64,000 nucleotides of DNA, taken from Candidatus Moraniibacteriota bacterium (lineage in GTDB: Bacteria; Patescibacteriota; Minisyncoccia; Moranbacterales; UBA1568). The position numbers and the translations under genes were made by a program. The stretch spans positions 848,311-912,310 of the forward strand of contig CP064994.1 of assembly GCA_016699975.1 (NCBI GenBank), given 5' to 3'. Below are positions 6,887-40,887 of the stretch, in pieces (within the stretch, counting starts at the first letter, position 1; each line of letters starts with the position of its first letter). Under the pieces are notes generated by a model. That model was not told where the DNA came from, did not search any database, and saw only the letters and a list, made by a program, of their open reading frames with translations.

Positions 6887-7638
6887 TACTTCGAACGCTT
6901 CTCTCTCTTTTTGAAGACGCGTTCTTCCCCCTTCGGTGCGTTCTCTGTGAAAAAAATGGGGAATTGTTGTGTGCATCCTGCGCCGCCTCTCTTCCTCGAC
7001 GCAGCTCACAAGTCTGCGGCTTCTGTGGCGCCCGCGAAACTCCGCAGGGCACCCTCTGCCACGAGTGCCACAGCGACAACTCTTCGCTCGACGGCATTTT
7101 TGCAGCCACCCGCTACGATGTTCTGCATATTGCTCGCCTCATTCATCTTTTTAAATATCGCTTTCTTCGTGACCTCGCGGAACCGCTCGGACACATCCTT
7201 TCGGAAGCGGTCTTGCGTTCGGAACTCCCGCTTCCCGACCTCCTTCTTCCCGTACCGCTTCATCCGAGACGCGAGCGGTTCCGCGGATGGAACCAATCAC
7301 TTCTTCTTGCAGAAGAGATGAGAAAGCACTTCCCCGAGCCCATAGCGCCTCGCGTTGATCCCCATCTTCTCAACAGAATTCGTTTCACGGCGCCCCAGAT
7401 GTCTCTTCGGGGCCGAATTGATCGCGCACAAAACATCGAAGGAGCGTTCGCACTCTCTCCCCCTCCAGAAAATAAAAACGAGCCCGAAAAAAACGCATTT
7501 GTTGATGCGCGCATTCTCGGAAAATACGTGTGGCTCATCGACGATGTCGCAGCATCAGGAGCAACCCTTCGCGCCTGCGCCGATGTTCTCAAAAAAAGCG
7601 GCGCCAAAAAAGTGTTTGGGGTCGTTGTGGCGCGTTAA
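6865..7638 (+). CDS. comFC: ComF family phosphoribosyltransferase-domain protein (ComFC-like)
   Basis: N-terminal CxxC...CxxC zinc finger (CVLCEKNGELLCASC...CGFCG), a C-terminal PRTase motif (VWLIDDVAASGATL), and a 22-bp overlap with the clpC stop. Confidence 0.7.
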   Translation: MHSCTRVILRTLLSLFEDAFFPLRCVLCEKNGELLCASCAASLPRRSSQVCGFCGARETPQGTLCHECHSDNSSLDGIFAATRYDVLHIARLIHLFKYRFLRDLAEPLGHILSEAVLRSELPLPDLLLPVPLHPRRERFRGWNQSLLLAEEMRKHFPEPIAPRVDPHLLNRIRFTAPQMSLRGRIDRAQNIEGAFALSPPPENKNEPEKNAFVDARILGKYVWLIDDVAASGATLRACADVLKKSGAKKVFGVVVAR

Positions 7639-8168
7639 AAAGTTTGAGGGTTCTCTCGAGAACAGGAATAAGAGCGACGAGAATTCTCCCGCTCCAAAAC
7701 CAAGAACGAGTACCGAAGATCCCCCGCCATTCGATCCTCCCGACTCACCGTTTTCGGAAAGAGCGTTTCATATTCTGGAAAAAAAACATCCCCCGAAAAG
7801 TGTCCGAAGACGAGGGTGATATACAAGCGATCCGCCCGAGCGATCGCCTCCTTGTACACGACTCCGCCGCCGATCACAAATACTTCTTCGCTCCCGGGAG
7901 CACTCTCTGCCACAGTAAGCGCCTCCTCCAAAGAAGAAGCAATAAGAATACCAGGAGGTGATTCCCATGGAATATCCGAAAGCACGATATTGGTTCGTTC
8001 GGGAAGCGGCTTCCCAATCGAAGAAAACGTCTTCATCCCCAGAATAACGGGGTGGCCCTTTGTTTTCTCCCGAAAATACGCGAGATCGTCAGGAATATGC
8101 CACGGCAATTTCCCTTTATTTCCAATCACACGATTTCCTTCTCCCACTGCCGCGATGAGACTGAGCAT
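7635..8168 (-). CDS. folA: Dihydrofolate reductase
   Basis: LSLIAAVGEGNRVIGNKGKLPWHIPDDLAYFREKTKGHPVILGMKTFSSIGKPLPERTNIVLS is a near-canonical DHFR N-terminus. The GGGVVY motif is also present. Confidence 0.85.
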   Translation of the reverse strand: MLSLIAAVGEGNRVIGNKGKLPWHIPDDLAYFREKTKGHPVILGMKTFSSIGKPLPERTNIVLSDIPWESPPGILIASSLEEALTVAESAPGSEEVFVIGGGVVYKEAIARADRLYITLVFGHFSGDVFFPEYETLFPKTVSREDRMAGDLRYSFLVLERENSRRSYSCSRENPQTF

Positions 8169-8185
8169 AGAAAAAGTCTGTTCTT

Positions 8186-9202
8186 TTATTTCTTTCTCTC
8201 AAATCCTCCAATATTTGCTATCTCTGCACGAATTGCCGGATGAGGATCATAGCCATCAAGAGAAAAATCTTCAAAGACAAAATCATCGATATTTTTTCTA
8301 GAAAGAGAAAGGGAAAGTTGAGGAAATGGTTTCGGTTCTCGGGAAAGCTGTTCTCGAACCTGCTCAAAGTGATTGCTATAAATGTGGGCATCACCAAGAG
8401 TATGAAAAAAATCACCCGGCTTAAGTCCCGTAATATGCGCCACCATCCGCAGAAGTAAGGCGTAACTTGCTATATTAAAAGGAAGACCCAAAAAGACATC
8501 CGCACTCCTTTGATAAAGTCCGAGATTTAAAATGCCATCCCCTGTAACCGCAAACTGAAAGGTAGTGTGACAAAATGGCGGGACGTCGTTGTCATTCCCT
8601 TTCGAGGCCATTTCATAAATAAAGTCGGGATTCCAAGCAGAAACGACATAGGATTTTCGATAGGGCATTTTCCGCAGCCCCTCAATAACCCATCCGAGTT
8701 GATCAATTGCTCTCCCGTCACTCGCAGGCCATCGCCTCCACATCTTTCCGTACGCCACAATAAGATCTCCCCATTCCACAACAAAAGGGTCATTTTCCGG
8801 AAGTGACGCGATTTTTTCTATAAACTCTTTCTGCTCCATATCAGGAAGTCCGCGTTCTCCGCACATTCTGCGGTACCGCTTCCAAGCCCACTCATCCCAA
8901 ATATGCACATTTCTGTCCACGAGATACTTAATATTTGTATAGCCGCGCAAAAACCAAAGCAGTTCTTCAAGAATACCGCGAAAAAAAACTTTCTTGGTAG
9001 TAAGAAGAGGAAAATATTGTCCAACATTAAATCGCATTGAATACCCAAATATTGAACGGATAGTTGGAGGATCCTCCCCCTTCTTTTTGTACCATTCTAA
9101 TATTTCAGGAGCAAAAAAGAGCTTCTTATCCGTTCCCTCTTTGAGAATCTTTTTCAAAAGATCGATATATTGGTATTCCGGATGCTGTATCTTTTGTTCC
9201 AT
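8186..9202 (-). CDS. thyA: Thymidylate synthase ThyA (long form with internal insertion)
   Basis: Catalytic motifs are present: PPFCHTTFQFAV (PCH...QFYV), AYGKMWRRW (GPVYG.QWR), and DAHIY. The protein is 338 aa versus ~264 for short-form ThyA. Confidence 0.85.
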   Translation of the reverse strand: MEQKIQHPEYQYIDLLKKILKEGTDKKLFFAPEILEWYKKKGEDPPTIRSIFGYSMRFNVGQYFPLLTTKKVFFRGILEELLWFLRGYTNIKYLVDRNVHIWDEWAWKRYRRMCGERGLPDMEQKEFIEKIASLPENDPFVVEWGDLIVAYGKMWRRWPASDGRAIDQLGWVIEGLRKMPYRKSYVVSAWNPDFIYEMASKGNDNDVPPFCHTTFQFAVTGDGILNLGLYQRSADVFLGLPFNIASYALLLRMVAHITGLKPGDFFHTLGDAHIYSNHFEQVREQLSREPKPFPQLSLSLSRKNIDDFVFEDFSLDGYDPHPAIRAEIANIGGFERKK

Positions 9203-9232
9203 ATTCGTTTTATAAATGGAGAAGTAAGAGTC

Positions 9233-11283: not shown

Positions 11284-12255
11284 CTATTCCGAACGATTTT
11301 TTGCGCCGAGACGCTCAAAAGCGCGAAGCACTTCAAGCGGTACAGCAAAAACCACAGTATTCGATTGATCGGAAGAGATATCGTTAATCGAATGAAGGGT
11401 GCGAAGGTGGAGGGAGCCGTCGTGCTGCGCAAGAATACCCGCCGCACGAGAAATATTTTCCGCTGCGATCACTTCCCCTTCGGCCTTAATAATGACGGCA
11501 CGGCGTTCACGTTCCGCTTCCGCTTGTTTCCCGATGACGCGCTTCATTTCTTCCGGGAGCGTCACATCTTTGAGTTCCACGGAACTCACCTTGACGCCCC
11601 AGGCATCGGTCGCCTGATCCACAATGCCGCGGATCTTTTCGGCAATCGCGTCTCTATTCGAAAGGAGCTCATCGAGATCGACTTCGCCTACCACGTTTCG
11701 TATAGTAGTCTGCGCAAGTTGTGACACCGCATAGAAAAAGTTTTCTACCTCGATAATCGCTTTCTCAGCATGGGAAATCTTGTAGTAGATGACGGCATTC
11801 ACAGTCACAGAAATATTGTCCTTCGTAATCGCTTCCTGATCCGGCACATCGACGGCGCGGATACGCATATCGACCTTCTGGTAAGACTGAAACACGGGAA
11901 TCACGAGACGCCAGCCGGGCTCCATTGTTCCTGTGTATTTCCCAATTGTGAATTTTACGCCTCGCTCGTACTGATTGATCTGACGAATGGAAAGAACTAG
12001 GACAATGATGATTATGATAGGGAGCAAGAAAAAGATATCCATAGAAAAAATGTTACCAATAAAACGAAAGAACAGGGGCGCACCTACAAAATTGATAATG
12101 GAAAGAAAGAGGAGAATGACCGGGAACATCCGAACCCACGGGTTTTTCATGAATTCACGAAGTTTCTCTTCAAGAGTTTCTGTCTCAAATTCGGGTGGAG
12201 CAGAATACATCATAGAATTTCGATGAGACTTGTACGCTTCTTTGCTCTCCATCAT
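11284..12255 (-). CDS. SPFH/band-7 (stomatin/prohibitin-like) membrane protein
   Basis: N-terminal TM segment followed by an SPFH core (ERGVKFTIGKYTG...VDMRIRAVDVPDQEAITKDNISVTVNAVIYYKI) and a coiled-coil tail. Confidence 0.75.
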   Translation of the reverse strand: MMESKEAYKSHRNSMMYSAPPEFETETLEEKLREFMKNPWVRMFPVILLFLSIINFVGAPLFFRFIGNIFSMDIFFLLPIIIIIVLVLSIRQINQYERGVKFTIGKYTGTMEPGWRLVIPVFQSYQKVDMRIRAVDVPDQEAITKDNISVTVNAVIYYKISHAEKAIIEVENFFYAVSQLAQTTIRNVVGEVDLDELLSNRDAIAEKIRGIVDQATDAWGVKVSSVELKDVTLPEEMKRVIGKQAEAERERRAVIIKAEGEVIAAENISRAAGILAQHDGSLHLRTLHSINDISSDQSNTVVFAVPLEVLRAFERLGAKNRSE

Positions 12256-12285
12256 ATCGCTCTTTTCTTGAAAGTCAAAACTATA

Positions 12286-12318
12286 AAAAAAGCGCTCCTC
12301 AAAGGGAGCGCTTTTCGA
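12286..12318 (-). terminator. Rho-independent terminator (hairpin GCGCTCC...GGAGCGC followed by a T-run on the minus strand) downstream of cysteine-rich gene copy 1
   Basis: A perfect 7-bp GC-rich stem is followed by TTTTTTTA when read on the minus strand. Confidence 0.5.
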
Positions 12319-12398
12319 GAACTAACATAGGGAACCTCTCGTCCCTCCCCACCACTCCCCTCTTCCAGAGACGATTCTCACGAGGCAGGGCTCACTTA

Positions 12399-13905
12399 CT
12401 ACGGAGCAACCTCGGTCCAGTTATCAGCACACTCTTTGGTCCCTCCAAAGCAGGCATTCGCACGTCCGCAGGTATCGGTCCACTTTTCATTGGGGCAGTG
12501 ATTTTCTACTCCGGTACATGTACAGACTTCACACCGAGAGCCGTTCCACTCACCGACGCCGCAATGAAATTCGCATTTTCGAGGAGTATTCGTTTCTGAG
12601 TACTGCCAGGACAAGGGTCCTGACAAACCAGTATTGTCTCCTTCGAAGGAAACGGCGGACGGTGGGACGGATCCGCTACACTTTGGTGTTTCTGCGATTA
12701 TCTGAACAGAGCTCATGATGAAACCCGCGCCATTCGACTGGGCACATCGAATTCCATAGGTATATGTCCCGGGAGCAAGGTTCCCGTGGGGACTCCCGCT
12801 CTGTTCTGAGCTAAGCCGCCGCTTGTCCAAGACGCGTATCCCATGCCATCTATGGCATAGCAACCCGAAACGTTTGTAGAAGTCCACACAAGATTGGCTG
12901 ACGAATAAGCAGGTATCGTAATGGAGTATCCTCTTGTCGGTCTCCCTTGGGGACTCTCTGCAAGAAAGGCGACGCTTCCATTTTGTACCGGTGGTGGTGG
13001 AGGAGTTCCGCGCACACAAGAGTTTCCACTAAAAGTAAAGCCGGCACGACAGGCGATGCAATAACTTCCGCTCCCCCACTACAATCCCAGTCCCATCCCG
13101 ACCATTCTCCTCCAGTAAACAATGCGAAAGGATTTCCTCCCGGCTCTGTCCCAGCATGACCGCTCGCCGTTCCACTGGAACACAGTGTAAACCCATCTAC
13201 TTCCGGACCTCGCTGCGTTGGCATCACTTGACCGTGAGCCGTGCCACAGGCTCCATTTGTCGGTCCTCCTCCACAATTTTTGGCACCTTCCACATTATTG
13301 CATCCGTTCCAACACTGTTGTCCGATACAAGTATTGCTCGCGCAATTATTACTTGGCGTGCAGCCGCCTGGTGGAGGTGTACCCGGACCAGACGGTGGAT
13401 CTTCCACGCTGCGCTCCATGCATCGATAAACATTTTTTCGCCACTCATTTTGTCCTTTTCGCTCACAATTACAGGTAACCGTCAATCCTTCAGAACAAAC
13501 GCTTCCCGGGGCCGGGCAATTCTGCCGATAGTTCGGGTCATACGGTGTTCCCGGGCCACACTCGCGATTACCCTGCCTCACCCATTCTCCACACTCCGCG
13601 CAGGGCTCGCAATGTGCAACGCCTCGGAACCTTCCATCCTGCTGGCATGCACCACATTGTCGCTCGCGACCAGAATTCTTACAATACGTTCCCGTGCTTG
13701 GGCAGGTGAGGAGAGGGTTGGCACTCGCTGAGCACGAGCCTCCGGGAGCAGACACTCGCCATTTTCCGGTTGCGGCTTGCGCTGATTCTGGAGAGAGCAA
13801 TGCAAAACCCACTCCAAAAACAAGTGCGAGAGCCCCAAGGAAAATATTTTGCTTCCATGCTTTCCGAGAAATGAAGGATATATTCATACGATTCGAGATC
13901 GACAC
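12399..13905 (-). CDS. Cysteine-rich secreted protein of ~560 aa, copy 1. It has a signal peptide, many CxxC-like pairs, and Pro-rich linkers, and is broken into 3 frames.
   Basis: ORFs 12850..13905, 12713..13015 and 12399..13019 tile a single protein when compared with copy 2. The N-terminal signal peptide is MSISNRMNISFISRKAWKQNIFLGALALVFGVGFALLSPESAQA. About 60 Cys residues are present. Confidence 0.5.
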
Positions 13906-29760: not shown

Positions 29761-29967
29761 CTATTTCAAGAGTTCGTTAACTGGAACGTCCAACGCATTG
29801 GCAAGGTTAGTAATAGTCGAAAGAGTTGGATTTGTTTTCCCGTTCTCGATGTTGCTAACAAAAGACCTGTTGACTGCTAATTTCTTAGCAATCTCAATTT
29901 GGGTAACACCTTTCTTTGTTCTGATCTTCTTGAGATTTTCCCCAAGCTTTTTCGAGTAGTCTTCCAT
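29761..29967 (-). CDS. XRE-family helix-turn-helix transcriptional regulator (68 aa)
   Basis: LKKIRTKKGVTQIEIAKKLAVNRSFVSNIENGKTNPTLSTITNLANAL is a canonical HTH_XRE. Confidence 0.7.
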   Translation of the reverse strand: MEDYSKKLGENLKKIRTKKGVTQIEIAKKLAVNRSFVSNIENGKTNPTLSTITNLANALDVPVNELLK

Positions 29968-30242: not shown

Positions 30243-31080
30243 TTGAAATGGGATTGTGGCCAGGTCCGCCCCCAACTGAATAGATATATGAAAGAGAAGC
30301 GAATGGATCGAAAATGCGAAACTCTTATTGATCCAGAACGAGCACCAATGATAAAAAAGATGTGTGAAACAGTAGCCTATGAACATTGGAGCGGGAGAAA
30401 AATCTACAACTGGCTCAAATTTGATCTGAACTTCAAAAGTGGCACCAGAAAGAGAAACTTAAGCCTCGGCAATATCTACAGGCTCCTCGATAATACCTTC
30501 TACTATGGAGTATTCTAATATCCAAGAAAATCAGGAAACTGGTACACAGGGAAACACAAACCGAGCATTACCAAAGAGCTTTTTGATCTCGTACAAAGTC
30601 AGATAAAAAGCCAAATTCTACGGGTTGAAGGGAAAGAGTTCGCTTTCACGAAAATAATGACTTGCAGACTCTGCGGATCAGGTATAAGTGCCGACGAAAA
30701 GTTCAAAAAGAAAAGAAGTGGCGGAGTTCACCGATAGGTCTCCTACGGCTGTACCAAAGCTAGAGGGACCGATTGTAAGTGTGGCTATACCGAAAAAAAA
30801 GAAATCCTAAAACATTTTGAAGAACTGATAGACAAGATAAGTCTCAATGAGATCGAGGTAAAGGAAAAATAAAAGCAGATATTGATCAGTTTTCCAAAAT
30901 GCAAAAGTTCTTTCTCGGAACAAAAGAAAAAATCAGTATTCCCAGTGTTGATATTCGAGGATATGCCAAATATATCCTCGAAGAAGGTGCGAACGAAGAG
31001 AAGTGAGAAATACTGGGTTGTCTCAAAAGCAGGATCTATCTTGCAGAGAAGAAAATAACTTTGGATAAATAAATAGACAA
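30243..31080 (+). pseudogene. Large serine recombinase remnant (recombinase domain, zinc ribbon and coiled-coil region) with several frame breaks and stops. It has no catalytic N-terminal domain.
   Basis: ...KIYNWLKFDLNFKSGTRKRNLSLGNIYRLLDNTFYYGVF is followed, in shifted frames, by ...CRLCGSGISADEKFKKKRSGGV..YGC.KA..TDCKCGY. The second serine recombinase gene at 39285 has similar motifs. Confidence 0.55.
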
Positions 31081-31118: not shown

Positions 31119-31169
31119 CTTTGTAACCGACCAATGTTGCAGGTAAGCGTGTCGTGCTACCTGCTGTTG

Positions 31170-31360
31170 GCGGTGAGATTTTGCGCTTTGCGCGAACTTT
31201 TTTCGAGCAAAGCACCAAATAAGGAAGCCGTCCCCGCCGTTGCGCTCCGCCCACTGGCGGATCGCTGTATCCAGAGAGAAGTTTCTTTACGATTTCGGAT
31301 TTTGCGCGCGGTTTTTTTCTCTCAAAAATGGAAAAGAAATCTTCTCTCTGGATACTCTGC
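31170..31360. repeat. Inverted repeat IR-A (left copy, ~190 bp). Its inverted partner lies at 38945..39133.
   Basis: The reverse complement of 31170..31360 matches 38945..39133 with only a few indels. The unit contains internal hairpins (GTATCCAGAGAGAAG...CTTCTCTCTGGATAC; CCGCCAGTGGGCGG). Confidence 0.85.
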
Positions 31361-31669
31361 TTTGGCAAGCAGAACGGCGGGAACGGCTGCTGTTGGTACG
31401 CCGCAGAGATAGAAATAAATGAGCTTGTGGTTATATTCTATCACATCAGGAAATATTTTGTTCACTCATTTCTCCATCTTTGCGGCGGAGCCATATCTAC
31501 AGTTTTCGGTAGTTCATTTGTTTGTGACTCCGGTTAAGCTGGTGCCAACCCATAATATGGATTGTGCTAGAGCACAATCAAATTTAATTGTGCTTGCCCC
31601 ACCCACCCGTGCGCGCACATCTGCTCGCAAAGGATAAAAGGGTTGCGAGCAAGACTCCCTTTTCATTCC

Positions 31670-33059
31670 CTATACTGAAGCCTTACTATGCTTGCTAATC
31701 TTTATTTGGGGAGTAATACCTAATTCCGAGCATTTTCTTGCCCAGGATTCAATTTTTTGTTTCAAGATTATAGAATTTATTTCAGAGATTTTAGTTGGCA
31801 ATTTTTTGTTTTCTATGCCAATCCAAAGACAGTAAACCCGGAAAGACTGATCCAGCTTTTTAGTATTCGCTTTCTTACTTATAAGTTCAAGTGTATTATT
31901 TGCCTGGTCACAAACATATCCTAGCTTTTGTGCAGTGCCAAATTTTACAGCATACACGGTATCCTCCTTCTTTACATCCCATGCCTCAATAGGCGTGCCC
32001 GATTTAACCTTAATTTTTGAAAAATCTTTATCCGCGATACTGTACCCGTGTTTCTTCAACTCTATATTAAAATCACTTTCTATTCCCATAATTTCAATCA
32101 AATCATCCTCTACTTTCTCTAGTTCTATGGTATCAATATACTCATTGAGTTGATCCAAATAATCTTCGTTAAATCTCATCCATTTACCTTGTGACAAAAT
32201 AACATTTTGACCATCAACGATATAATCAATTGATTCCTTGAGCGTCCGCGAGAACTCATTTGCATCTTCTTTTTTTACTTTAATCTTAATACTAAGTATT
32301 TGATCATCAGGAATCGAATGTTCTGATATAAATCCATTAAGCTGCTCAATCGAAAGCTCATCTAGCTCATTTGAAAAATTTCCTCCCCAATGAAATACAT
32401 ACTTTTCTTGTCCAGAAAATATGAAATCTACACCGACAAGGTCGTGGCTATTTGCGGTAAAGTCTGCACCGTCTTTGATTCCTTTTATTTCTTTGAGAAG
32501 CTTTTCTTCATAAGAAATGACTTCGGGAAGTCCATCTATAATCATCGTTCTGGGGAGCGCGAAAAGTTCTTTTGATTCAGCTAATCTAGTCAATTTATCA
32601 AGAAAATCCTCAAGGTCCTCTTTCTCAATTTCTGGATTAAGATTTACGGATGATCCGAATTTACCAGTTTTGCCGAAGTCAGCTTTTTGCTCTTCCAATA
32701 TAGATGCTTGCAAATAGTCAACGGATTCCCCACTTTCTATATCAAGCTTTGTATGTTTTGTATAGCTTCTTATTTCTTTTTTCTTCTTGCCAGCAAACTT
32801 TTTTGTAGATTTTTGACGAACATCCTGTTTATCAACAGCACGTTTTGCAATTTCTGTTCCAAAATCATGATCGCAGTGTTGCCGAAGATAAAAATGACTC
32901 TTCCCGTAACTAATAACGAAGCAATATTTGTCATTTTCCCAAAGATAAGCTGCAAAATAAATTAAATTCTTTGGCTTATTACCAGAAAAAAATTCCTCAT
33001 ATTCTTCCACCCACGGGATTTGTTTTGAGTTAATATCTTTTGAAAAATAGAAGCTATAT
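31670..33059 (-). CDS. Unknown protein, C-terminal ~462 codons of a ~505-aa gene interrupted by an IS630 element. It is the last gene of the R-M operon.
   Basis: ORF 31670..33073. Its first 5 codons are encoded by the IS terminal inverted repeat. The upstream exon is at 34140..34265. The protein is K/E-rich with no recognised domain. Confidence 0.45.
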
Positions 33060-34138
33060 CCCCCGCAAAACAAAATAGGGGATCTGGTATATTGGATTCA
33101 TGCCCGCAAAAACAAAAACTGAACTCTCCCCCGAAGAGAAAGATTTGCTCAAAGCGTATCTCAAAACATCCCCGCTCATTCTCGTTCGCCTGAAATGCCA
33201 TGCGATTCTTACGAGAGAAAAAGGAATGCCTCTGAAAGACATCGCCGATATTGTTTCGAGACACGAAAATACTATCGGTGTATGGATGAAGAACTGGGAA
33301 AAACAACGCATGGCGAGTATCTTCACCGGACATGAGGGAATCAGAACGCAAGTAAACTCACAGAAGAACAAAAGAAGAAATCAGAGAAGCCCTCGAAAAC
33401 CACCAAGTGAATACACTCTTCCAAAAACCTTTTGGGATGTCCCCGCCCTCAAAACATATGTTCAAGCGATATTTGGAGTCGTATTTGAATCCGTTCGTTC
33501 ATATCACTTCCTCCTTTCTTTTTGCAATCTGAGTTTCAAGTATCCCGATACCTTCGATCTTCACCGGAATGAAACTCATATTGTCGAAAGAATGGTTGAA
33601 ATACAGACAGAAATCAGCCCCTTCTCAAGGATGATTCGTGGGAAGTGTTTGCTTCCGATGAAGTGCGAATGGAATTGGAAGCTCTCACCAGAAAAGCGTG
33701 GCTCAAGAAAGGAGAACGGACGATCGTGCACGTGAATCGAAAGCGAGAAGCGCAAGTTATCTCGATTGCTCAATCAAAAAACTTTCGATGCCATCTTTAT
33801 GAAGTTCCCTGGCAAAACCAAGAAGAAATACTCAAAGCGTTGGAACAATTTCTGAAAGAGTATCCTGATAAAAATCTGTATCGTATGGGACAATGCGCGA
33901 TTTCCAGGGAAGGGGAATACGAAAAGCCCTCCGTAAAGGAGGACTTCTCGAGAGAGTGCATCTCATCAACTTGCCGCCATGCCCCCGATCATAATCCGAT
34001 TGAGCAGTGTGGAATACGGCGAAAGGGATGATGGCAAACACCCAATATGAAAGTTTTGAAAAAATGAAGATGGTGTTTTTCACGTATGTGAATGGACGAG
34101 CGTTTGAGTATCGAATCTAAGATTTTGTTTTGCGGGGG
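33060..34138 (+). mobile_element. IS630/Tc1-mariner family insertion sequence (~1.08 kb) with 17-bp terminal inverted repeats CCCCCGCAAAACAAAAT and TA-type flanks
   Basis: The left TIR is at 33060..33076. Its reverse complement is at 34122..34138. Flanks are ...TATAT| and |ATATAG. Confidence 0.75.
33100..34031 (+). pseudogene. IS630-family transposase (HTH plus DDE domain), frame break near 33650
   Basis: N-terminal HTH (LKCHAILTREKGMPLKDIADIV) and a C-terminal ...APDHNPIEQ motif (the YSPDLNPIE box) occupy two overlapping frames (ORFs 33100..33735 and 33645..34031). Confidence 0.65.
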
Positions 34139-34139
34139 A

Positions 34140-34265
34140 TATAGTTTTCCATTTTCCGTGCACAGAAGAGTGAATAACTTCGAGTCCCACAGACTCAAGC
34201 TTCAATTTCAAATCTAAAACACTGTCTTTTGGAATTTTGAAGATATTCAACTTCATAATGGTCAC
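34140..34265 (-). CDS. 5' exon (42 codons) of the IS630-disrupted unknown gene. Its start overlaps the methyltransferase stop (ATGA).
   Basis: MTIMKLNIFKIPKDSVLDLKLKLESVGLEVIHSSVHGKWKTI, after which the ORF runs into the IS TIR. Confidence 0.4.
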
Positions 34266-35041
34266 TTCATTCTATTTTCTGCAACCTTAAAGTATTTTTT
34301 ATCCTTCTCTATGCCAACCCAAGTTCTGCCAAGTTTTTTTGCAACAAATGTTGTTGTGCCACTCCCGAGAAACGGGTCAAGAACAACGTCGCCTTTATTA
34401 GACGAAGCAAGAATGATTCTTCTCAACATTTCCTCTGGTTTCTGCGTTGGATGAACTGCTCGATTATCCTTTCCGCGTATTCTTTCTTTTCCTTGTACCA
34501 ATGGCAACTGCCAAACATCCCGCATTTGCTTCAAGGAGCCATCTTTTTGTTTTTCAGGATTCAGTTTTTTTAATTCCTCATAGTTGAACACCCATCCCTT
34601 GCCTTTTACCGCCCATACAACAAATTCTGTAGAGTGTGTAAATACGCGCCTCGTCATATTTGGCATCGCATTTGTTTTTTGCCAAGTAATAATATTATTG
34701 ATCTTGAAATCAAGTTGTTTCAAGACAATCATTACCTCTGAAATATTGTGATATGTGCAGGAAATATAGATTGAGCCACCTTCTCTCAAAACACGATACG
34801 CTCCACCAATCCATTTGCGTGTAAACTGCAAGTATTCAGGAGCGGACATCCTGTCCCACTCTTCGTTTACCATGTACCAATCGCCACCTGTTTTATTTCC
34901 CTTCCAATGCAAGCCATTGCCAGAAAGGTTATAGGGAGGATCAGCAAAGATAAGATCAACAGATTCTTTCTCAATCTGCTTAGTCATTATCTCTACACAA
35001 GCTCCTAGGTATAGTTGGTTTTTCTTCATATTTTTATACAA
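34262..35041 (-). CDS. Beta-class DNA methyltransferase (N6-adenine or N4-cytosine; motif IV DPPY before motif I)
   Basis: IFADPPYN near the N-terminus and LDPFLGSGTT near the C-terminus give the permuted beta-class order. The length is 259 aa, typical of the HinfI/RsrI-like group. Confidence 0.8.
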   Translation of the reverse strand: MYKNMKKNQLYLGACVEIMTKQIEKESVDLIFADPPYNLSGNGLHWKGNKTGGDWYMVNEEWDRMSAPEYLQFTRKWIGGAYRVLREGGSIYISCTYHNISEVMIVLKQLDFKINNIITWQKTNAMPNMTRRVFTHSTEFVVWAVKGKGWVFNYEELKKLNPEKQKDGSLKQMRDVWQLPLVQGKERIRGKDNRAVHPTQKPEEMLRRIILASSNKGDVVLDPFLGSGTTTFVAKKLGRTWVGIEKDKKYFKVAENRMK

Positions 35042-36848
35042 GGCTTGCCTGCCATGTTGATATGGCGTTTGGAATATTCTTTAACCACTCTCCCGAGTCC
35101 GTATACGATTTTGATGAACCAATAATTTCTTCGTACAAACGAGAGATTTCATCGTGCTTCAAAAATTTATTCTCAGATTTTATCTTGACGAGAGTTTTCA
35201 AGACTGAAACAAAATCAGTAATTGATAATGGTACTATTTTTTGAGTTTTCCCCTCATATTCATATTTGATAGCTGTCCAAAAAGTATTGACCGTATCACG
35301 ATGAATTTTTGGAGCTATAAAGAGACAATATGTTTTCTTATCAGTGTATTTATTCTCAAAATCCCGCAAATGTCTCATAACTGGCTGCCCCTCATTGTAC
35401 CATTGATCCCTACCTGTAAGCATTGTAACTTCGCAGATAGCATTAAAGTTTCCATAGAAACATTCGATGTCTGGTGTGTTGGCAGGAGCAGTAAAAGTGG
35501 GCTCATTATCGTCTCCGACAGGATAGTTTGGTTGTATTTTGAGTGCGTCATTTAGTGCGTGGAGACCAAGAGAGGACAATTTTTCAAGCAGTATCGGTCG
35601 ATCCTCAAAGTCAAAAATATTTTCGAGGTCTTTGATGTAAGATTCAACTTGTTCTACCGCTTGTGATTTTTTGTGGTTACCCTCTTCTTGTAATGTCCGC
35701 CTCAAAACCCGCAACTCCTCAATGTATGCCTTGAGTTCCGTTTCTTGAAAAGTCTGATAATCCCTTATAGCAATACCTCTCCTCTGTAAGTCACTCTCGT
35801 ATTGCTCAATATCTTGAACGAGGTTTTTGATGATTTCCACATATTTTTCCTTAGTTTCCCAAGGTAGTTGTGGTTGCGAGATATCAGAAATATAGTTTAG
35901 ATACTCATCTTTTGTTGCAAAAACCCTTGATTGCGCATTATCAAAATCAAGCAAAGATTTTATCTCAACTGATCTTCTCGATTCCAAATCAATATAATAA
36001 CCACCACCACGAATAAATATGTAGCGTGTTAGACGAGAATATCGTATTGCATTATCTCCGTAATCGCGTAGATTTTTCAGAAGTCCTGAAACTGCACTTG
36101 TCTTTTTTGTCCCGAGAAATTTACTTACAAATTCTTTTTCATAGGAATCAAAAATTGCTTTCTGTTCATTTCTATTTTTTCCAGAAAGCTTATCGCGCAA
36201 TCCTATGAGGTTTGTCGCATAACCATCAATATCCTTGTAATTTACCAATGTTGGTACGAAAAGCGAAAATTCTTTCTTACTAATTCCTTTCGCCTCTTTG
36301 CCTCGCGCAATTTCTTTTCTGTTTACAGCATCTATCAAGTGAAGCGCACCAATAAATGGTTTAATATCATATCCACTATCCTGCGAATAATCGTCATTAT
36401 CCAAGTTCGGAACTTGCCATTTCAAGAAACTTCTCAAGAAAATTTCTCCAAGATCGAAATTTTCCTTCAAAAACAATCTTCCTAAATCTGTGATAAAAAT
36501 TTTCCCATCTTTAATGGAAACAAATCCGAATTTTTTTAGAGGATTCAATGATTGTCTGCCTCGCATCGAAGGATCCTCATAGTTCTTGGCATTGAAAATT
36601 GCCTCAGCTTCTTTGAAAGAAATTTCTTTTGATTGATCGTCAATCAGGCTTATCTGATCTTCTGAAAGACCATTATAAAACTGGCGGCTTCCATACCCGT
36701 AAACTCTATTTTTAATAAGCAAAATCTGATATTTTTTCTGATTTTCTAAATTCCACTCAAAATTTTCAATCTCCTGCAAAACGACTAGGAAATTTCTTAG
36801 TCTTTCAGGATTACGTAATGTTGTTGTAATTGACCAGGGCTTTTTCAT
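35034..36848 (-). CDS. Type IIS restriction endonuclease or nicking enzyme of the AlwI family (N.BstNBI/PleI/MlyI-like)
   Basis: 604 aa. The C-terminal block ...ICEVTMLTGRDQWYNEGQPVMRHL...YCLFIAPKIHRDT...IVPLSITDF parallels ...LGEVTTSKG...EPVTRH...YCLFIAPEIN...IIPLSLKQF, recalled from N.BstNBI. The N-terminal region is also similar. Confidence 0.7.
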   Translation of the reverse strand: MKKPWSITTTLRNPERLRNFLVVLQEIENFEWNLENQKKYQILLIKNRVYGYGSRQFYNGLSEDQISLIDDQSKEISFKEAEAIFNAKNYEDPSMRGRQSLNPLKKFGFVSIKDGKIFITDLGRLFLKENFDLGEIFLRSFLKWQVPNLDNDDYSQDSGYDIKPFIGALHLIDAVNRKEIARGKEAKGISKKEFSLFVPTLVNYKDIDGYATNLIGLRDKLSGKNRNEQKAIFDSYEKEFVSKFLGTKKTSAVSGLLKNLRDYGDNAIRYSRLTRYIFIRGGGYYIDLESRRSVEIKSLLDFDNAQSRVFATKDEYLNYISDISQPQLPWETKEKYVEIIKNLVQDIEQYESDLQRRGIAIRDYQTFQETELKAYIEELRVLRRTLQEEGNHKKSQAVEQVESYIKDLENIFDFEDRPILLEKLSSLGLHALNDALKIQPNYPVGDDNEPTFTAPANTPDIECFYGNFNAICEVTMLTGRDQWYNEGQPVMRHLRDFENKYTDKKTYCLFIAPKIHRDTVNTFWTAIKYEYEGKTQKIVPLSITDFVSVLKTLVKIKSENKFLKHDEISRLYEEIIGSSKSYTDSGEWLKNIPNAISTWQASLV

Positions 36849-36850
36849 AA

Positions 36851-38659
36851 TTATTTTGTAACTTTACAATAAAAGATTCTCTCGGCATTATCATCGCCAT
36901 TACTTTTTCCAGTTGTAAATGCTTTATACTCTTTTTCGAAAATTTCCACTTCTCCTTTGCTGTTCAAAATTCTCAGTATGTCCTTATCTTTCATTCTCGC
37001 ATTTGATCGCCCATCTTTTGAGTCGCCAGTATTATTATACGAAAGCAAAATATGATTGCATTTTGCATTCATAATCAAGTCTTCAAATGCCTGCGTCGCG
37101 TTCTTTAAACAATAAGAACTTTTAATGTGCGATCGATCCATTTTCTTTCCAATTCCAACGACTGCTGGCTTTTTCCATTCCACCAAGTTTTCTAAAAGAT
37201 GGTATGCGTCAGAATACTGTCTTGAATTGTAAGGGGGATCAATATATAAAACATCACAAGTAATTTTTCGAATAAGAGCGTTTGCATCTTCCCTATAAAC
37301 TTTGTTGTTTTTATTCCGGGAATAATCAAAATCTGGCACTAGCAGCTTCAATGGCTGTACAGTATCTAATTTTTTTCGGAACGCATCATAATGCCCAACG
37401 GTATTAGCAACCTTGTCTACTGCGTAAAGCAATGAACAAATAAGCAGACTTCTTTCGTCTTCATTTTCTGCAATACGGTCAATTTCTTCTCGTATTGCTC
37501 CAATTTTCCTTGCATTTTCTAACGAAAAATATGTTCCTCCAAAATGCTTAGAGAAATAATTATCGTCTTTGCTTTGTAGATTGTTTAAATGGCTTATTTT
37601 ATTTGCTACACTGGCAAGAATATCCTTACTAACACCAAGAAAAGCATTTAAACAAACATAGTTTGCATAAAGAAAATCATTCGAAATGATTTTGACTTCT
37701 GGGGTATTAAACCTTTCACCAACAACGCCCGTTCCAGAAAAAATATCACAAAGAGAATCTATTTTCCCGCATTTCTCAGAAATAATGTCCTCTATAAACC
37801 CGAGAAGTTTATGCTTGTTTCCTAAGTACCTTCTATTTTGCAATTGAAAATACCCGGCTTTTTGTTGTATTGGCTGAAAATAATGTTTCTCGACTTTTCG
37901 AACGCTCATTTCATAAACAGGTCTTTCAATCTCTAATAAGTCAAAAAGTGTCGCCTGTGTTCCATCAGCAACATAATCAAAATCAGTACCAGTCTTTTTT
38001 AACTTTTCACAAAAACTATAATGTTCATTTTCGGAAACAATAATAAAATCAATAACGGGTATCCCCATTATTTCGCCAGCTTGTGCTATTTTCTCAACAA
38101 CTTGAGTATCTTTTTCACTCGGAGTAGTATCTCCTGATGGATGATTATGTACCAATATGACGCTAGCGGCATTTAACTCCGTTGCTGGATGAAAAATTTC
38201 TCGTGGATGTAAGAGTGTTTTATCAAGAAGCCCAACACTCACTACTTCTTTCTTAAGCAAGCCATTCCTTGCATTGAGATATAGGCAGACGAGATGTTCT
38301 TTTTTCTTATCTCGTAGATCATAAATCAAAGACAGTACATCCTGTGAGTTTTTTATGATAAGCTCATTGGATTTTTCTTCTTGATAAAACCTCTTCACGA
38401 GAGAAACAGCAGAAACAACCTGAAGAGCCTTTGCCTGCCCAATTCCTGATATTTTTTGCAAATCATCCACGGATATATCTAAAAATCCTTTTCCAAATTT
38501 TTGGATCACTTGTTGGGATAATTTTTGAACATTTTTCCCTTTGATTCCGCTCCCAAGTAGAATAGCCAAAAGATCACTTTTGGAAAGTGCATCCGGTCCT
38601 TTCTTAAGGAACCTCTCTCTTGGTCTATCCACTTTTGGAATATCTTTTATTTTTGTCAT
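36851..38659 (-). CDS. Fusion protein with an N-terminal RadC-like JAB/MPN domain and a C-terminal Dam-like (D12-class, alpha) N6-adenine DNA methyltransferase
   Basis: Residues 1-225 carry a RadC HhH region (LSKSDLLAILLGSGIKGK...ISGIGQAKALQ) and the JAMM motif HNHPSGDTTPSEKD. Residues ~250-602 carry YLGNKHKLLGFIE...DIFSGTGVVG (D12 motif I) and LYIDPPYN (motif IV). Confidence 0.75.
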   Translation of the reverse strand: MTKIKDIPKVDRPRERFLKKGPDALSKSDLLAILLGSGIKGKNVQKLSQQVIQKFGKGFLDISVDDLQKISGIGQAKALQVVSAVSLVKRFYQEEKSNELIIKNSQDVLSLIYDLRDKKKEHLVCLYLNARNGLLKKEVVSVGLLDKTLLHPREIFHPATELNAASVILVHNHPSGDTTPSEKDTQVVEKIAQAGEIMGIPVIDFIIVSENEHYSFCEKLKKTGTDFDYVADGTQATLFDLLEIERPVYEMSVRKVEKHYFQPIQQKAGYFQLQNRRYLGNKHKLLGFIEDIISEKCGKIDSLCDIFSGTGVVGERFNTPEVKIISNDFLYANYVCLNAFLGVSKDILASVANKISHLNNLQSKDDNYFSKHFGGTYFSLENARKIGAIREEIDRIAENEDERSLLICSLLYAVDKVANTVGHYDAFRKKLDTVQPLKLLVPDFDYSRNKNNKVYREDANALIRKITCDVLYIDPPYNSRQYSDAYHLLENLVEWKKPAVVGIGKKMDRSHIKSSYCLKNATQAFEDLIMNAKCNHILLSYNNTGDSKDGRSNARMKDKDILRILNSKGEVEIFEKEYKAFTTGKSNGDDNAERIFYCKVTK

Positions 38660-38661
38660 AT

Positions 38662-38910
38662 CTATTTCAAAAGCTCATCACTCGCGACATCTAACGCCTG
38701 TGCGATCTTTTCGATTGTTGCAAGGGTGGGGTTTCCTTTCCCTGCTTCAATATTGCTCACTTGAGCACGATCAAAACCGAGCTTACGACAAATGTCGCCT
38801 TGCGACATTTTCTTCTGCTCTCGTATGCGTTTGATGTTTTTCCCAAGCTTGATTGAAGGGGTAGTCATATCTATAGATTTTATTATACCGATTGTTGTGT
38901 TGTATAACAA
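38662..38910 (-). CDS. Controller (C-protein-like) XRE-family HTH regulator at the head of the R-M operon
   Basis: LGKNIKRIREQKKMSQGDICRKLGFDRAQVSNIEAGKGNPTLATIEKIAQAL. The stop is 3 nt before the RadC-methyltransferase start. About 70-80 aa. Confidence 0.6.
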   Translation of the reverse strand: MLYNTTIGIIKSIDMTTPSIKLGKNIKRIREQKKMSQGDICRKLGFDRAQVSNIEAGKGNPTLATIEKIAQALDVASDELLK

Positions 38911-38944: not shown

Positions 38945-39133
38945 GCAGAGTATCCAGAGAGAAGTTTTCTTTTCCATTTTTGAGAAAAAAACCGCGCGCA
39001 AAATCCGAAATCGTAAAGAAACTTCTCTCTGGATACAGCGATCCGCCAGTGGGCGGAGCGCAACGGCGGGGACGGCTTCCTTATTTGGTGCTTTGCTCGA
39101 AAAAAGTTCGCGCAAAGCGCAAAATCTCACCGC
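38945..39133. repeat. Inverted repeat IR-A' (right copy)
   Basis: Reverse complement of 31170..31360. Confidence 0.85.
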
Positions 39134-39255
39134 AAATTGAAACTTCCGAATCCGAAAGGGAAAAGGATCGGTGCGCCGAAGGCGCGGAAGAAGACAGAAG
39201 GTGGCGTCGCTCCGCGACGAATCTGAATGGGGTGGACAGGCTGAAGCGGGCGGAT
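39130..39255. repeat. Inverted repeat IR-B (left copy, ~126 bp). Its partner is at 40678..40805, and it directly abuts IR-A'.
   Basis: The reverse complement of 40678..40805 equals 39130..39255 nearly perfectly. It begins with a near-copy (1 mismatch in 9) of the tRNA-Ser 3' end (CTCACCGC versus CTCTCCGC). Confidence 0.85.
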
Positions 39256-39284
39256 TTGTCCTTGTTTCGTATCCAAAAGCAATT

Positions 39285-40690
39285 ATGATCAAACCAAAAT
39301 ATTTTCTCTACGCGCGCAAGAGTACTGAAGACGATGATCGCCAGGTAATGAGTATTGAGGCGCAGCTTTTTGAATTGCGAGAATATGCGCGTAAAGAAAA
39401 TCTTGAAATCCTGAAGGAATTTCAAGAGTCGAAAAGCGCAAAGACGCCAGGGCGAGAGGTATTCGGAAAGTTGATGGAACGAATTGAAAACGTGATGGAG
39501 TCGGTATTCTCGCGTGGCATCCTGATCGCTTGGCGCGTAATTCGATGGATGGCGGGCGCGTGGTGTACGCCGTCGATCAAAAGAAAATCGTGTCTTTGCG
39601 CTTTCCGACTTTTTGGTTTGAACCGACCCCGCAGGGGCTCTTTATGTTGCAAGTGGCGTTCGGACAATCCAAATACTATTCCGACAACCTCGCCGAGAAT
39701 ATCAAGCGAGGAATCCGCCAAAAATTGCGCCGTGGCGAGTGGCTCAACCTCGCTCCCTTTGGTTATATGAACGATCCTGTGAAGCGAAATATTGCGCCAC
39801 ATCCCACGGAAGCGCGGATTGTGCAGCTCGCGTTTGATGAGTACGCAAAAGGAACGCACACTTTCTTGTCTCTTGGCGCATTTTTGGCGGAACTTGGCGT
39901 GGTCAGTCGGAATGGAACGCCACTTGCCAAAGCTTCCATCAAACGGCTCATCACCAACCGTGCCTATCTCGGTTTTGTGAAGCACGGTAAGGAATGGTTT
40001 GATGGAAACTTTGAGCCCCTGATTTCTCCCGCTTTGTTTGAAGCCGTGCAGAAGATACTTTTGGCGAGAGAGCGACCGCGCAAGCGGAAAATGAAGCATG
40101 ATTTTCCGTTTACTGGACTTTTTCGATGTGGCGAGTGTGGTAGTATGATTTCCGCCCAATGGACGACGAATCGGCATGGCACGAAGTATCGCTACTATCG
40201 GTGCTCGAAAAAGCGCGGTCGCTGTTCGCAGTCGTACATTCAGGAGAAAACCCTCGCCAAACAATTACGAGCACGGCTTCAAACCATTTCGCTGTGTGAT
40301 CACTACACTGACTGGATGTTGGGTAAGGTGAAGGAATGGGAGCATGAAGAAGTATCGGCATCACACAGCGAAATACAAAATCTTTCAGCAACTATCAAAG
40401 CGAGTGAGGCGCGCCTGGAGAAGTTGGTTTCGATGTATTTAGATGGTGATGTTACCAAAGAAATCTACCTTCGCAAAAAAGATGAAAGTATGCGCGCCAC
40501 TCTCGCTTTGCGGGAAAAGCTGAAAGATTTGGAAAGCGGGAGAAATCAGTGGGTCGAACCCCTGCGAGAATGGATTTTGGATACGAAACAAGCCGATTTT
40601 TTGGTCGAGCATGAGGATTTGCACCAAACAAAAAGGCTCGTCCAAAAAATCGGAACGAACCCCATTGTTCGTGACAAATCCGCCCGCTTC
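39285..40690 (+). CDS. Large serine recombinase (resolvase catalytic domain, recombinase domain, zinc ribbon, coiled coil) with one frame break near 39500
   Basis: The N-terminal catalytic region is YARKSTEDDDRQVMSIEAQL... The second frame continues with ...GILAWHPDRLARN... The CGECGSMISAQW...YYRCSKKRGRC zinc ribbon follows. The end coordinate is approximate because the ORF runs into IR-B' and the tRNA. Confidence 0.75.
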
Positions 40691-40805
40691 AGCCTGTCCA
40701 CCCCATTCAGATTCGTCGCGGAGCGACGCCACCTTCTGTCTTCTTCCGCGCCTTCGGCGCACCGATCCTTTTCCCTTTCGGATTCGGAAGTTTCAATTTG
40801 CGGAG
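40678..40805. repeat. Inverted repeat IR-B' (right copy). Its last 5 nt overlap the tRNA-Ser 3' end.
   Basis: See IR-B. Confidence 0.85.
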
Positions 40806-40887
40806 AGGCAGGGATTCGAACCCTGGAAGGGGTTTCCCCCTTAACACATTAGCAGTGTGCTGCTTTCAGCCACTCAGCCACCTCTCC
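40801..40887 (-). tRNA. tRNA-Ser (anticodon GCU), class II with long variable arm. No encoded CCA.
   Basis: The minus-strand sequence folds as acceptor GGAGAGG, D-arm GCT..AGC, anticodon stem GCACA/TGTGT with loop CTGCTAA, a long variable arm, and T-arm CAGGG-TTCGAAT-CCCTG. The sequence is GGAGAGGTGGCTGAGTGGCTGAAAGCAGCACACTGCTAATGTGTTAAGGGGGAAACCCCTTCCAGGGTTCGAATCCCTGCCTCTCCG. Confidence 0.8.

Follow-up and report, generated by a model that had tools for sequence, protein, structure and literature searches.

An IS630-family insertion interrupts a DUF6119 gene, a candidate defence nuclease gene, at the end of an AlwI-type restriction-modification operon in Candidatus Moraniibacteriota

Results

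An interrupted gene at the end of a restriction-modification operon

The stretch analysed here (hereafter the window) comprises 64,000 nucleotides (nt) of the Candidatus Moraniibacteriota contig CP064994.1 and contains a restriction-modification (R-M) operon in which the genes for a controller protein (C), a RadC-D12 methyltransferase fusion (M2), an AlwI-type endonuclease (R) and an N6_N4 methyltransferase (M1) are followed by a promoter-distal fifth gene of the DUF6119/TIGR04141 family. This fifth gene is cut in two by an insertion sequence (IS) of the IS630 family (Table 1). A first-pass annotation, made from the sequence of the window, had proposed that a single gene was split by an IS630-family element and that its two parts would join in one continuous frame, and both proposals held when the insertion was removed in silico and the result was translated. 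Excision of 1087 nt, namely the IS and one TA dinucleotide, yields a 1500-nt open reading frame (ORF) with one terminal stop that encodes 499 amino acids (aa) and is collinear end to end with intact homologues of 494-508 aa (up to 94% identity, 99% coverage). The junction produced by this excision, ...KWKT/SFYFSK, is the same as in the homologues. Other excisions were also tried: removing 1079 or 1083 nt broke the frame, and removing 1081 nt (...KWKTI+YSFYF...) stayed in frame but introduced an extra I-Y found in none of the 17 intact homologues aligned. We regard the identity of the gene, and its knock-out by an IS630-family element at a CTAG site in codon 38/39, as virtually certain.

The same annotation had found no family that it could recognise for the protein. 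This was not borne out, as the restored protein matches Pfam DUF6119 (PF19614) with 82.6 bits (cut-off 27) and TIGR04141 with 59 bits (cut-off 35), and the 3' piece alone already matches both models (expectation values (E) of 3.3e-23 and 3e-16, respectively). Two further details of the annotation also needed revision. It had given the gene about 505 codons, 42 of them before the IS, where the product is 499 aa long and the interruption falls after codon 38; and it had described an ATGA overlap between the M1 stop and the start of the gene, where the overlapping start codon is actually a GTG (GTGA). The minus-strand ATG at 34256 (MKLNIFKI...), which lies 5 nt past the methyltransferase stop TGA at 34264-34262, corresponds to the start in the aligned intact homologues and is most likely the start of this gene as well.

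As for the insertion itself, the element is real, and the reported bounds of 33060-34138 proved 3 nt short on each side. Its ends are perfect inverted repeats of 20 base pairs (bp), TATCCCCCGCAAAACAAAAT, at 33057-33076 and 34122-34141; the 17-bp repeats described earlier are correct to the extent that a 17-nt core of the end is present in exactly two copies in the window, where chance alone would give 0.01. TA duplicates are found at 34143-34142, at the end of the 5' piece, and at 33056-33055, at the start of the 3' piece. A homologous locus, L001, carries the uninterrupted site GGGAAACTAGCTTC, and its intact gene reads GGGAAACTAGCTTCTATTTT across the insertion point, so that the target is CTAG and the empty site ACTAGC. 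Together with the junction in the homologues, this empty site defines an element of 1085 bp inserted in CTAG with duplication of TA, which is the signature of IS630/Tc1 elements.

The two transposase frames match the NCBIfam IS630 model (5.5e-13 and 5.5e-8) and the Pfam families HTH_23 and DDE_3, with scores against NF033545 of 49 and 32.6 bits, both under the cut-off of 100. The transposase is split by a -1 shift, and a TGA stop follows 8 codons past the NPIE motif; given the split frame and the early stop, this IS copy is probably defective or dependent on frameshifting. No further copies of the IS were found in the window or in the plasmid collection, and the copy may represent a recent insertion of a non-autonomous, or else a frameshift-dependent, element.

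Table 1. Positions of the interrupted gene, its insertion sequence and the upstream operon genes in the window (HTH, helix-turn-helix)
Feature	Coordinates	Strand	Description	Evidence
DUF6119 gene, 5' piece	34142..34256	-	Codons 1-38 (MKLNIF...GKWKT) and first base of codon 39	
IS630-family insertion sequence	33057..34141	+	1085 bp	Inverted ends, empty site, transposase models
Transposase frame, HTH part	33100..33735	+	211 aa	
Transposase frame, DDE part	33645..34031	+	128 aa, -1 frame	
DUF6119 gene, 3' piece	31670..33056	-	Codons 39-499, stop at 31672-31670	
M1	34262..35041	-	N6_N4 (beta-class) DNA methyltransferase, 259 aa	Pfam, PADLOC
R	35034..36848	-	AlwI/N.BspD6I-family type IIS endonuclease, 604 aa, intact	Pfam, PADLOC, PDB
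M2	36851..38659	-	RadC (JAB) and D12-class N6-adenine DNA methyltransferase fusion, 602 aa	Pfam, PADLOC
C	38662..38868	-	Controller protein, XRE-type HTH, ~68 aa	ORF listing, MTTPSIKLGKNIKRIREQKK...

The upstream R-M genes

The description of the interrupted gene as a fifth co-directional and tightly spaced gene after C, M2, R and M1 was confirmed, as all four upstream genes are present and intact, with spacings of 2 nt (C/M2), 2 nt (M2/R), an 8-nt overlap (R/M1) and 5 nt (M1/DUF6119). M2 matches Pfam RadC (2.4e-38), UPF0758_N and MethyltransfD12 (1e-33), as well as the PADLOC model MTase_II (8.6e-116); R matches Pfam RE_AlwI (9e-84), the PADLOC model 'Type II nicking endonuclease' (2.1e-128) and, in the PDB, N.BspD6I (1.7e-30); and M1 matches Pfam N6_N4_Mtase (2.9e-63) and PADLOC MTase_II (2.1e-86). 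With an RE_AlwI endonuclease, two methyltransferases and a C protein, the operon is of the AlwI/N.BspD6I type IIS kind. Here the R-M genes are intact, and the accessory DUF6119 gene alone is dead. The first-pass annotation took such inactivation by an IS to be typical of costly defence genes, for which the window offers a single anecdotal case. The top promoter-like match of the region (TTGTTA-17-TATAAT, 38910-38882) lies just 5' of the C gene and is a consensus match only; in the promoter and terminator scan of the region as a whole, site counts equalled chance expectation.

The DUF6119 family and its genomic neighbourhood

When 1.84 billion cluster representatives were searched exhaustively with a profile, 713 clusters (50% identity, E<=1e-3) were retrieved. 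Their members come from Patescibacteria, Actinomycetota, Bacillota and Proteobacteria, and Legionellales, Hahella and Hyphomicrobiales are among the groups represented. The full-length representatives among the best 150 of these 713 clusters are approximately 480-565 aa long and match the whole profile. The family is thus small, uniform in length and patchy in distribution, in keeping with the title of the TIGR04141 model, 'sporadically distributed protein'. No characterised member of DUF6119 or TIGR04141 was found, and the searchable literature yielded no functional statement on either family or on the phrase 'sporadically distributed protein'. The restored protein retrieved no match in PADLOC-DB 2.0.0 at E<=0.01, where its operon neighbours match strongly, and none in PHROGs.

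We then compared the gene neighbourhoods of close relatives (at least 55% identity; all from metagenomes or metagenome-assembled genomes of Candidate Phyla Radiation (CPR) type) with those of more distant ones, scoring the first upstream gene on the same strand in a census dereplicated at 90% identity. As the first-pass annotation had anticipated, intact homologues adjoin AlwI-family R-M genes in other genomes: close relatives lie directly downstream of, and on the same strand as, such systems in three operon layouts, which are RadC-M/R(610)/M (L001-3 and L015), HTH/DUF4357/M/M/R(510) (L004-6) and DUF4357/RadC-M/M/R(505) (L007, L013 and L014). Other close relatives follow a DpnII system together with an AIPR/AbiU-like gene (L057) or a type III-like helicase-nuclease (L065), or are divergent from an adjacent Eco57I-like fused methylase (L056). 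In the census of close relatives (n=19), the upstream gene is an R-M gene in 13 and AIPR in one more (N6_N4 methylase 7, RE_AlwI 4, type I S subunit 1, ResIII 1, AIPR 1). Among the distant relatives (n=52), the per-family counts, which may overlap, include N6_Mtase (5), ResIII (5), Eco57I (4) and HsdM_N (3), and HsdR domains are found as well. Some copies stand alone, in actinobacterial islands that also carry serine recombinases. The DUF6119 gene of Hahella has a complete Gabija pair at a distance of 5 kb (GajA 7e-212, GajB 2e-133), and the copy on a Bacillus cereus megaplasmid is flanked by a DinG-like protein, AbiU (3e-147) and PDC-S71.

The first-pass annotation had suggested an additional defence or specificity component. 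A defence role stands by strong association only, and a role in specificity is unlikely, because the same protein (62-79% identical) is found behind endonucleases only 26-49% identical to the R of the window, and is also found solo. In L004, for example, the DUF6119 protein is 79% identical and the endonuclease 26% identical, and in L008 the DUF6119 protein is 62% identical and the N6_N4 methylase 91% identical; a specificity subunit was rejected, as the protein does not co-vary with R or M. The variety of R-M partners, the lack of co-variation and the solo copies instead point to an autonomous module that has repeatedly been attached to restriction systems, and argue against a subunit of any single R-M system. 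The possibility of a phage-borne gene was also considered and was rejected, as no DUF6119 relatives were found among the 2.9 million viral contigs of IMG/VR and a single weak match was retrieved from 50,697 GenBank phage records; plasmids gave 2 in 72,556.

Several neighbouring genes were recorded alongside this comparison. The RadC-D12 methyltransferase fusion recurs in related AlwI-type operons (L001, L007 and L013-L015), and a DUF4357 protein is the first operon gene in two of the layouts (L004-L007, L013 and L014). In L001, a NERD-domain protein (11701-12441) follows the DUF6119 gene. AIPR/AbiU-type genes adjoin the DUF6119 gene both in the CPR contig L057 (5785-6987) and on the B. cereus megaplasmid (L139, 9907-11250). 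In a Kaiserbacteria-type locus (L010/L016), an ORF of 169 aa (7423-7932) occupies the expected place of the endonuclease, between the N6_N4 methylase and the DUF6119 gene; it has no Pfam or PADLOC match and may be an unrecognised small restriction enzyme.

Predicted structure and conserved residues

An AlphaFold2 model was made of P0001, an intact homologue that is 94% identical, using 118 sequences (mean predicted local distance difference test score 77.7, predicted template modelling score 0.69). Foldseek searches with this model retrieved nothing significant from the PDB; among viral models, the top match was a phage 'recombination associated protein' (E 4e-4, probability 0.90). By these weak fold matches, the front part would be an RdgC/RexA/TBP-like DNA binder and the C-terminal domain would be PD-(D/E)xK-like.

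Conservation was assessed in an alignment of 115 sequences with identities as low as 22%. Three residues, D398, K409 and Q422, do not vary at all; E364 and E395 are each present in 114 of the 115, Y418 in 106 and D421 in 93, and at position 380 there are 95 sequences with D and 19 with H. The restored sequence keeps E364, D380, E395, D398, K409, Y418, D421 and Q422 (...ESDFN...IEAWD...YAVKFG...GYVCDQ...). In the AlphaFold2 model, the conserved C-terminal residues are placed on a helix-strand-strand-helix-strand arrangement, in the order expected of a PD-(D/E)xK core, and they form the motif E-x2-D-x10-K, then Y-x3-Q, with 11 residues of spacing from D398 to K409. A second acid could be supplied by E395 or E364. 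Further towards the N-terminus, residues 111-150 form a basic hairpin in the model (isoelectric point 9.9), modelled with low confidence, in and beside which R110, K118, K129 and K131 are basic in 73-99% of sequences.

The island around the operon

The genes for DnaE, LeuRS, ThyA and PilM in the 64-kb window place the operon on the chromosome, and the RecG encoded in the window shows 100% identity to a protein from a Candidatus Moraniibacteriota metagenome-assembled genome. The operon lies within a stretch of 35-41% GC content, against approximately 50% elsewhere, and its neighbours include a tRNA-Ser(GCT) gene (40800-40887) and a gene for a CcrB/XisF-like large serine recombinase; it is part of a low-GC integrated island beside tRNA-Ser in this Candidatus Moraniibacteriota chromosome. 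DNA homology to L001 (88-92%) has both of its limits coinciding with the operon (31656-38650), and since this homology starts and stops exactly at the operon, the five genes move as a module.

Two pairs of inverted repeats were noted. One, of 181 nt (93% identical; 31167-31347 and 38956-39136), encloses the whole C-M-R-M-DUF6119 operon, and the L001 homology ends just inside it. The other, of 135 nt (99%; 39126-39260 and 40673-40807), has the serine recombinase gene between its arms and directly adjoins tRNA-Ser(GCT) at the 3' end of the latter. The arrangement could be invertible or cassette-like. An Rfam search of the region downstream of the DUF6119 gene, including the left arm of the 181-nt repeat, returned sub-threshold noise only. 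The serine recombinase gene (39171-40852, plus strand) is broken into two overlapping frames (39171-39770 and 39530-40852), and on the other side of the operon there are remnants of a recombinase domain (30243-30810, plus strand) and a separate XRE HTH gene (29761-29967). The island looks old and decaying.

R itself is a mosaic when compared to the L001 enzyme (7391-9223): the C-terminal ~330 aa, which comprise the linker and catalytic parts, are 97-100% identical, and the N-terminal ~280 aa are only 40-67% identical, with both flanking methyltransferases at 96-97%. The N-terminal part of an AlwI-family endonuclease is its DNA-recognition part, and the mosaic resembles what recombination would leave behind if the recognition module had been exchanged and the methylases had not changed to match.

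Discussion

We consider DUF6119 a credible candidate for a new anti-phage nuclease, as the gene often ends restriction operons and sits in defence islands. In the function that we propose, the intact 499-aa protein would be a self-contained and horizontally mobile defence effector with no need of a partner. Its first ~350 residues would form RdgC/RexA/TBP-like nucleic-acid-binding modules, with the conserved and strongly basic beta-hairpin (approximately residues 111-150) clamping or threading DNA, and its last ~140 residues would form a PD-(D/E)xK-like alpha-beta-beta-beta-alpha-beta domain, in which the near-invariant E364, D/H380, E395, D398, K409, Y418 and Q422 would coordinate metal and carry out DNA cleavage. 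The protein would recognise some feature of invading DNA, such as restriction ends or nicks or phage replication intermediates, and then cut, thereby reinforcing or backing up restriction in the manner of Shedu or type IV enzymes that stand alone beside R-M genes. Since no partner is conserved and many R-M types are involved, the link to restriction would run through the DNA substrate and not through protein contacts.

These statements do not all carry the same weight. That DUF6119 proteins serve in defence is, to us, somewhat favoured; that they are DNA nucleases has nearly but perhaps not quite an even chance. The statement taken as a whole, that an IS has killed a DUF6119 gene whose product is a DNA-sensing defence nuclease working alongside restriction, we would place evenly between right and wrong. 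The widest version, a new class of single-protein anti-phage nuclease in which an RdgC/RexA-like clamp is fused to a PD-(D/E)xK-type effector, recruited by many R-M types as a second line acting on restriction products or phage intermediates and especially common in genome-reduced CPR bacteria, is put forward tentatively, as less likely than not, and the specific notion that DNA ends or nicks are what is sensed seems to us unlikely.

A number of observations weigh against the proposed defence nuclease. The motif departs from the canonical (D/E)xK, as the residue two positions before K409 is A, F or S. In Pfam searches at E<=10 with 18 full-length and 30 C-terminal sequences, DUF6119 alone was retrieved, and PDB sequence profiles gave no nuclease or RdgC match for either the whole protein or the C-terminal domain. 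Comparison by hhalign with E. coli RdgC, both as a single sequence and as an alignment (homology to PF04381), reached a probability of at most 0.4%, the RdgC homologue search having gathered relatives of at least 85% identity only; and hhalign in global mode against an alignment of AlwI-family endonucleases, or of their catalytic domain, was negative. Taken together, the Pfam, PDB and hhalign searches produced no sequence-profile match of the C-terminal ~140 aa to any described PD-(D/E)xK family. Moreover, fold matches were assigned to the front or the back of the protein from aligned lengths, and the domain assignment is thus something that we infer from weak but mutually consistent evidence. 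Many copies are solo, with no recognisable defence neighbour, and the defence role is read from the gene neighbourhood alone. Finally, a DNA nuclease that acts on its own and has no immunity gene must follow some rule to tell self from non-self, and we can name none.

Such a rule would be provided if DUF6119 were instead a type IV-like modification-dependent endonuclease, whose N-terminal region reads a modified base, of the sort by which phages evade classical R-M, and whose C-terminal PD-(D/E)xK-like domain cuts. The protein is a single polypeptide with neither partner nor immunity gene, the listed full-length members (the best 150 of 713) are about 500 aa long, and the C-terminus bears a conserved, nuclease-like constellation of residues. 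Type IV enzymes are also known to cluster with type I R-M loci, with mrr and mcrBC beside hsdRMS in E. coli, and the neighbours of DUF6119 genes include type I, IIS, IIP and IIG R-M genes, with solo copies as well. We nevertheless judge this explanation, on balance, improbable.

We give a similarly low estimate to a function for the mobile element itself, in which an RdgC-like binder would be a modulator of RecA or recombination, a factor in element maintenance or exclusion, or else an addiction toxin, with the R-M genes merely as co-cargo. Many copies are flanked by serine recombinases, and the island in the window has a CcrB/XisF-like one beside tRNA-Ser; the distribution is sporadic and resembles that produced by horizontal gene transfer; and RdgC is a regulator of RecA and not a defence protein (PMC11077077). 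Shared residence on islands is exceeded, though, by the tight same-strand position after R-M genes in 13 of the 19 close relatives. The most conserved residues, too, form a catalytic-looking cluster of acids and lysine, which goes beyond a DNA-binding surface, and few copies were found on plasmids (2 of 72,556) or in phages (1 weak match).

The last two explanations both tie the protein physically to its R-M neighbours, and both are weakened because the partners vary and solo copies exist. In the first of them, DUF6119 would be an abortive-infection guard on the model of PrrC and EcoprrI, held by R-M proteins until a phage anti-restriction factor frees it to destroy host and phage DNA. Its place as the last gene inside R-M operons, AbiU/AIPR neighbours in two cases and a predicted fold that may be kin to the RexA sensor and the RnlA/LsoA toxins would all suit a guard; physical guarding, however, needs co-evolution with one R-M type, and the partners here are of many unrelated types and often absent, which leaves this explanation very improbable. 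We give the least credence to a second subunit of an AlwI/N.BspD6I-type enzyme, with R as a nickase of the Nt.BspD6I or Nt.BstNBI kind and DUF6119 cutting the opposite strand in the manner of the small subunit ss.BspD6I. In its favour, R shows homology to N.BspD6I (E 1.7e-30) and has 'nicking endonuclease' as its best PADLOC model, the operon has no gene for a small subunit of ~190 aa, and several AlwI-type operons have DUF6119 in close translational proximity to their R-M genes. Against it, DUF6119 has no match to ss.BspD6I (2P14) at E<=10 where the catalytic domain of R does (8e-9), it is very often solo and is also found behind DpnII, type I, type III-like and Eco57I-like genes, it does not co-vary with R (79% identity where R has 26%), and a protein of 499 aa that includes a large additional domain does not resemble a simple catalytic subunit.

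If the reading of DUF6119 as a DNA-sensing defence nuclease is correct, a family of 713 clusters that has been catalogued with no function would become a new defence gene, the combination of an RdgC/RexA-like binder with a nuclease-like domain would be an architecture not described before, and the family would offer a clear case of modular accessory effectors bolted onto several types of restriction operon. It would also provide a handle on immunity in CPR bacteria, where experimental knowledge is scant. The family is R-M-associated and is missing from the 2023 defence catalogue PADLOC-DB 2.0.0. As the locus in the window is a dead copy from a family with no assigned function, its value lies in the lead to the family and not in the locus; a direct test is feasible, as both the exact restored sequence and intact alleles such as P0001 (94% identical) are available.

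Comparison with known systems

The insertion is like other IS630/Tc1-mariner elements in its size of about 1.1 kb, the duplication of TA at CTAG, the short perfect inverted ends and an HTH plus DDE_3 transposase. Unlike an intact IS630, the copy in the window has a transposase split by the -1 shift, which ends early past NPIE and whose pieces score under the model cut-off, and it may be non-autonomous. Compared to the DUF6119 (PF19614)/TIGR04141 family, the restored protein has the same length, is collinear and carries all of the family-invariant residues, and the gene differs solely by the IS interruption.

With respect to R.BspD6I (Nt.BspD6I with ss.BspD6I), the R of the window is homologous to the large subunit, and an extra nuclease-like gene downstream is formally analogous to the small subunit; DUF6119, however, is unrelated to ss.BspD6I in sequence, 2.6 times larger, and also found with unrelated R-M types and solo. 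RnlA and LsoA have a HEPN RNase domain and need an antitoxin (RnlB or LsoB), and DUF6119 has neither. E. coli RdgC and lambda RexA are non-specific DNA binders of the RdgC fold, and RexA is the sensor of Rex exclusion. DUF6119 has no detectable sequence similarity to either of them, is approximately 200 residues longer, with an extra C-terminal domain of catalytic appearance, and, in contrast to RexA, has no RexB-like partner.

Shedu (SduA) and the type IV enzymes are single-gene nucleases with an N-terminal sensing part and a C-terminal PD-(D/E)xK domain. DUF6119 is unlike these in that no PADLOC model matches it, in its motif (E-x2-D...x-V-K...Y-x3-Q as opposed to D...(D/E)xK) and in its other N-terminal fold. 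Nevertheless, DUF6119 would resemble Shedu and the type IV enzymes in that a single polypeptide combines a putative N-terminal DNA binder with a predicted C-terminal domain of PD-(D/E)xK type, has no immunity gene and is found in defence islands beside R-M genes.

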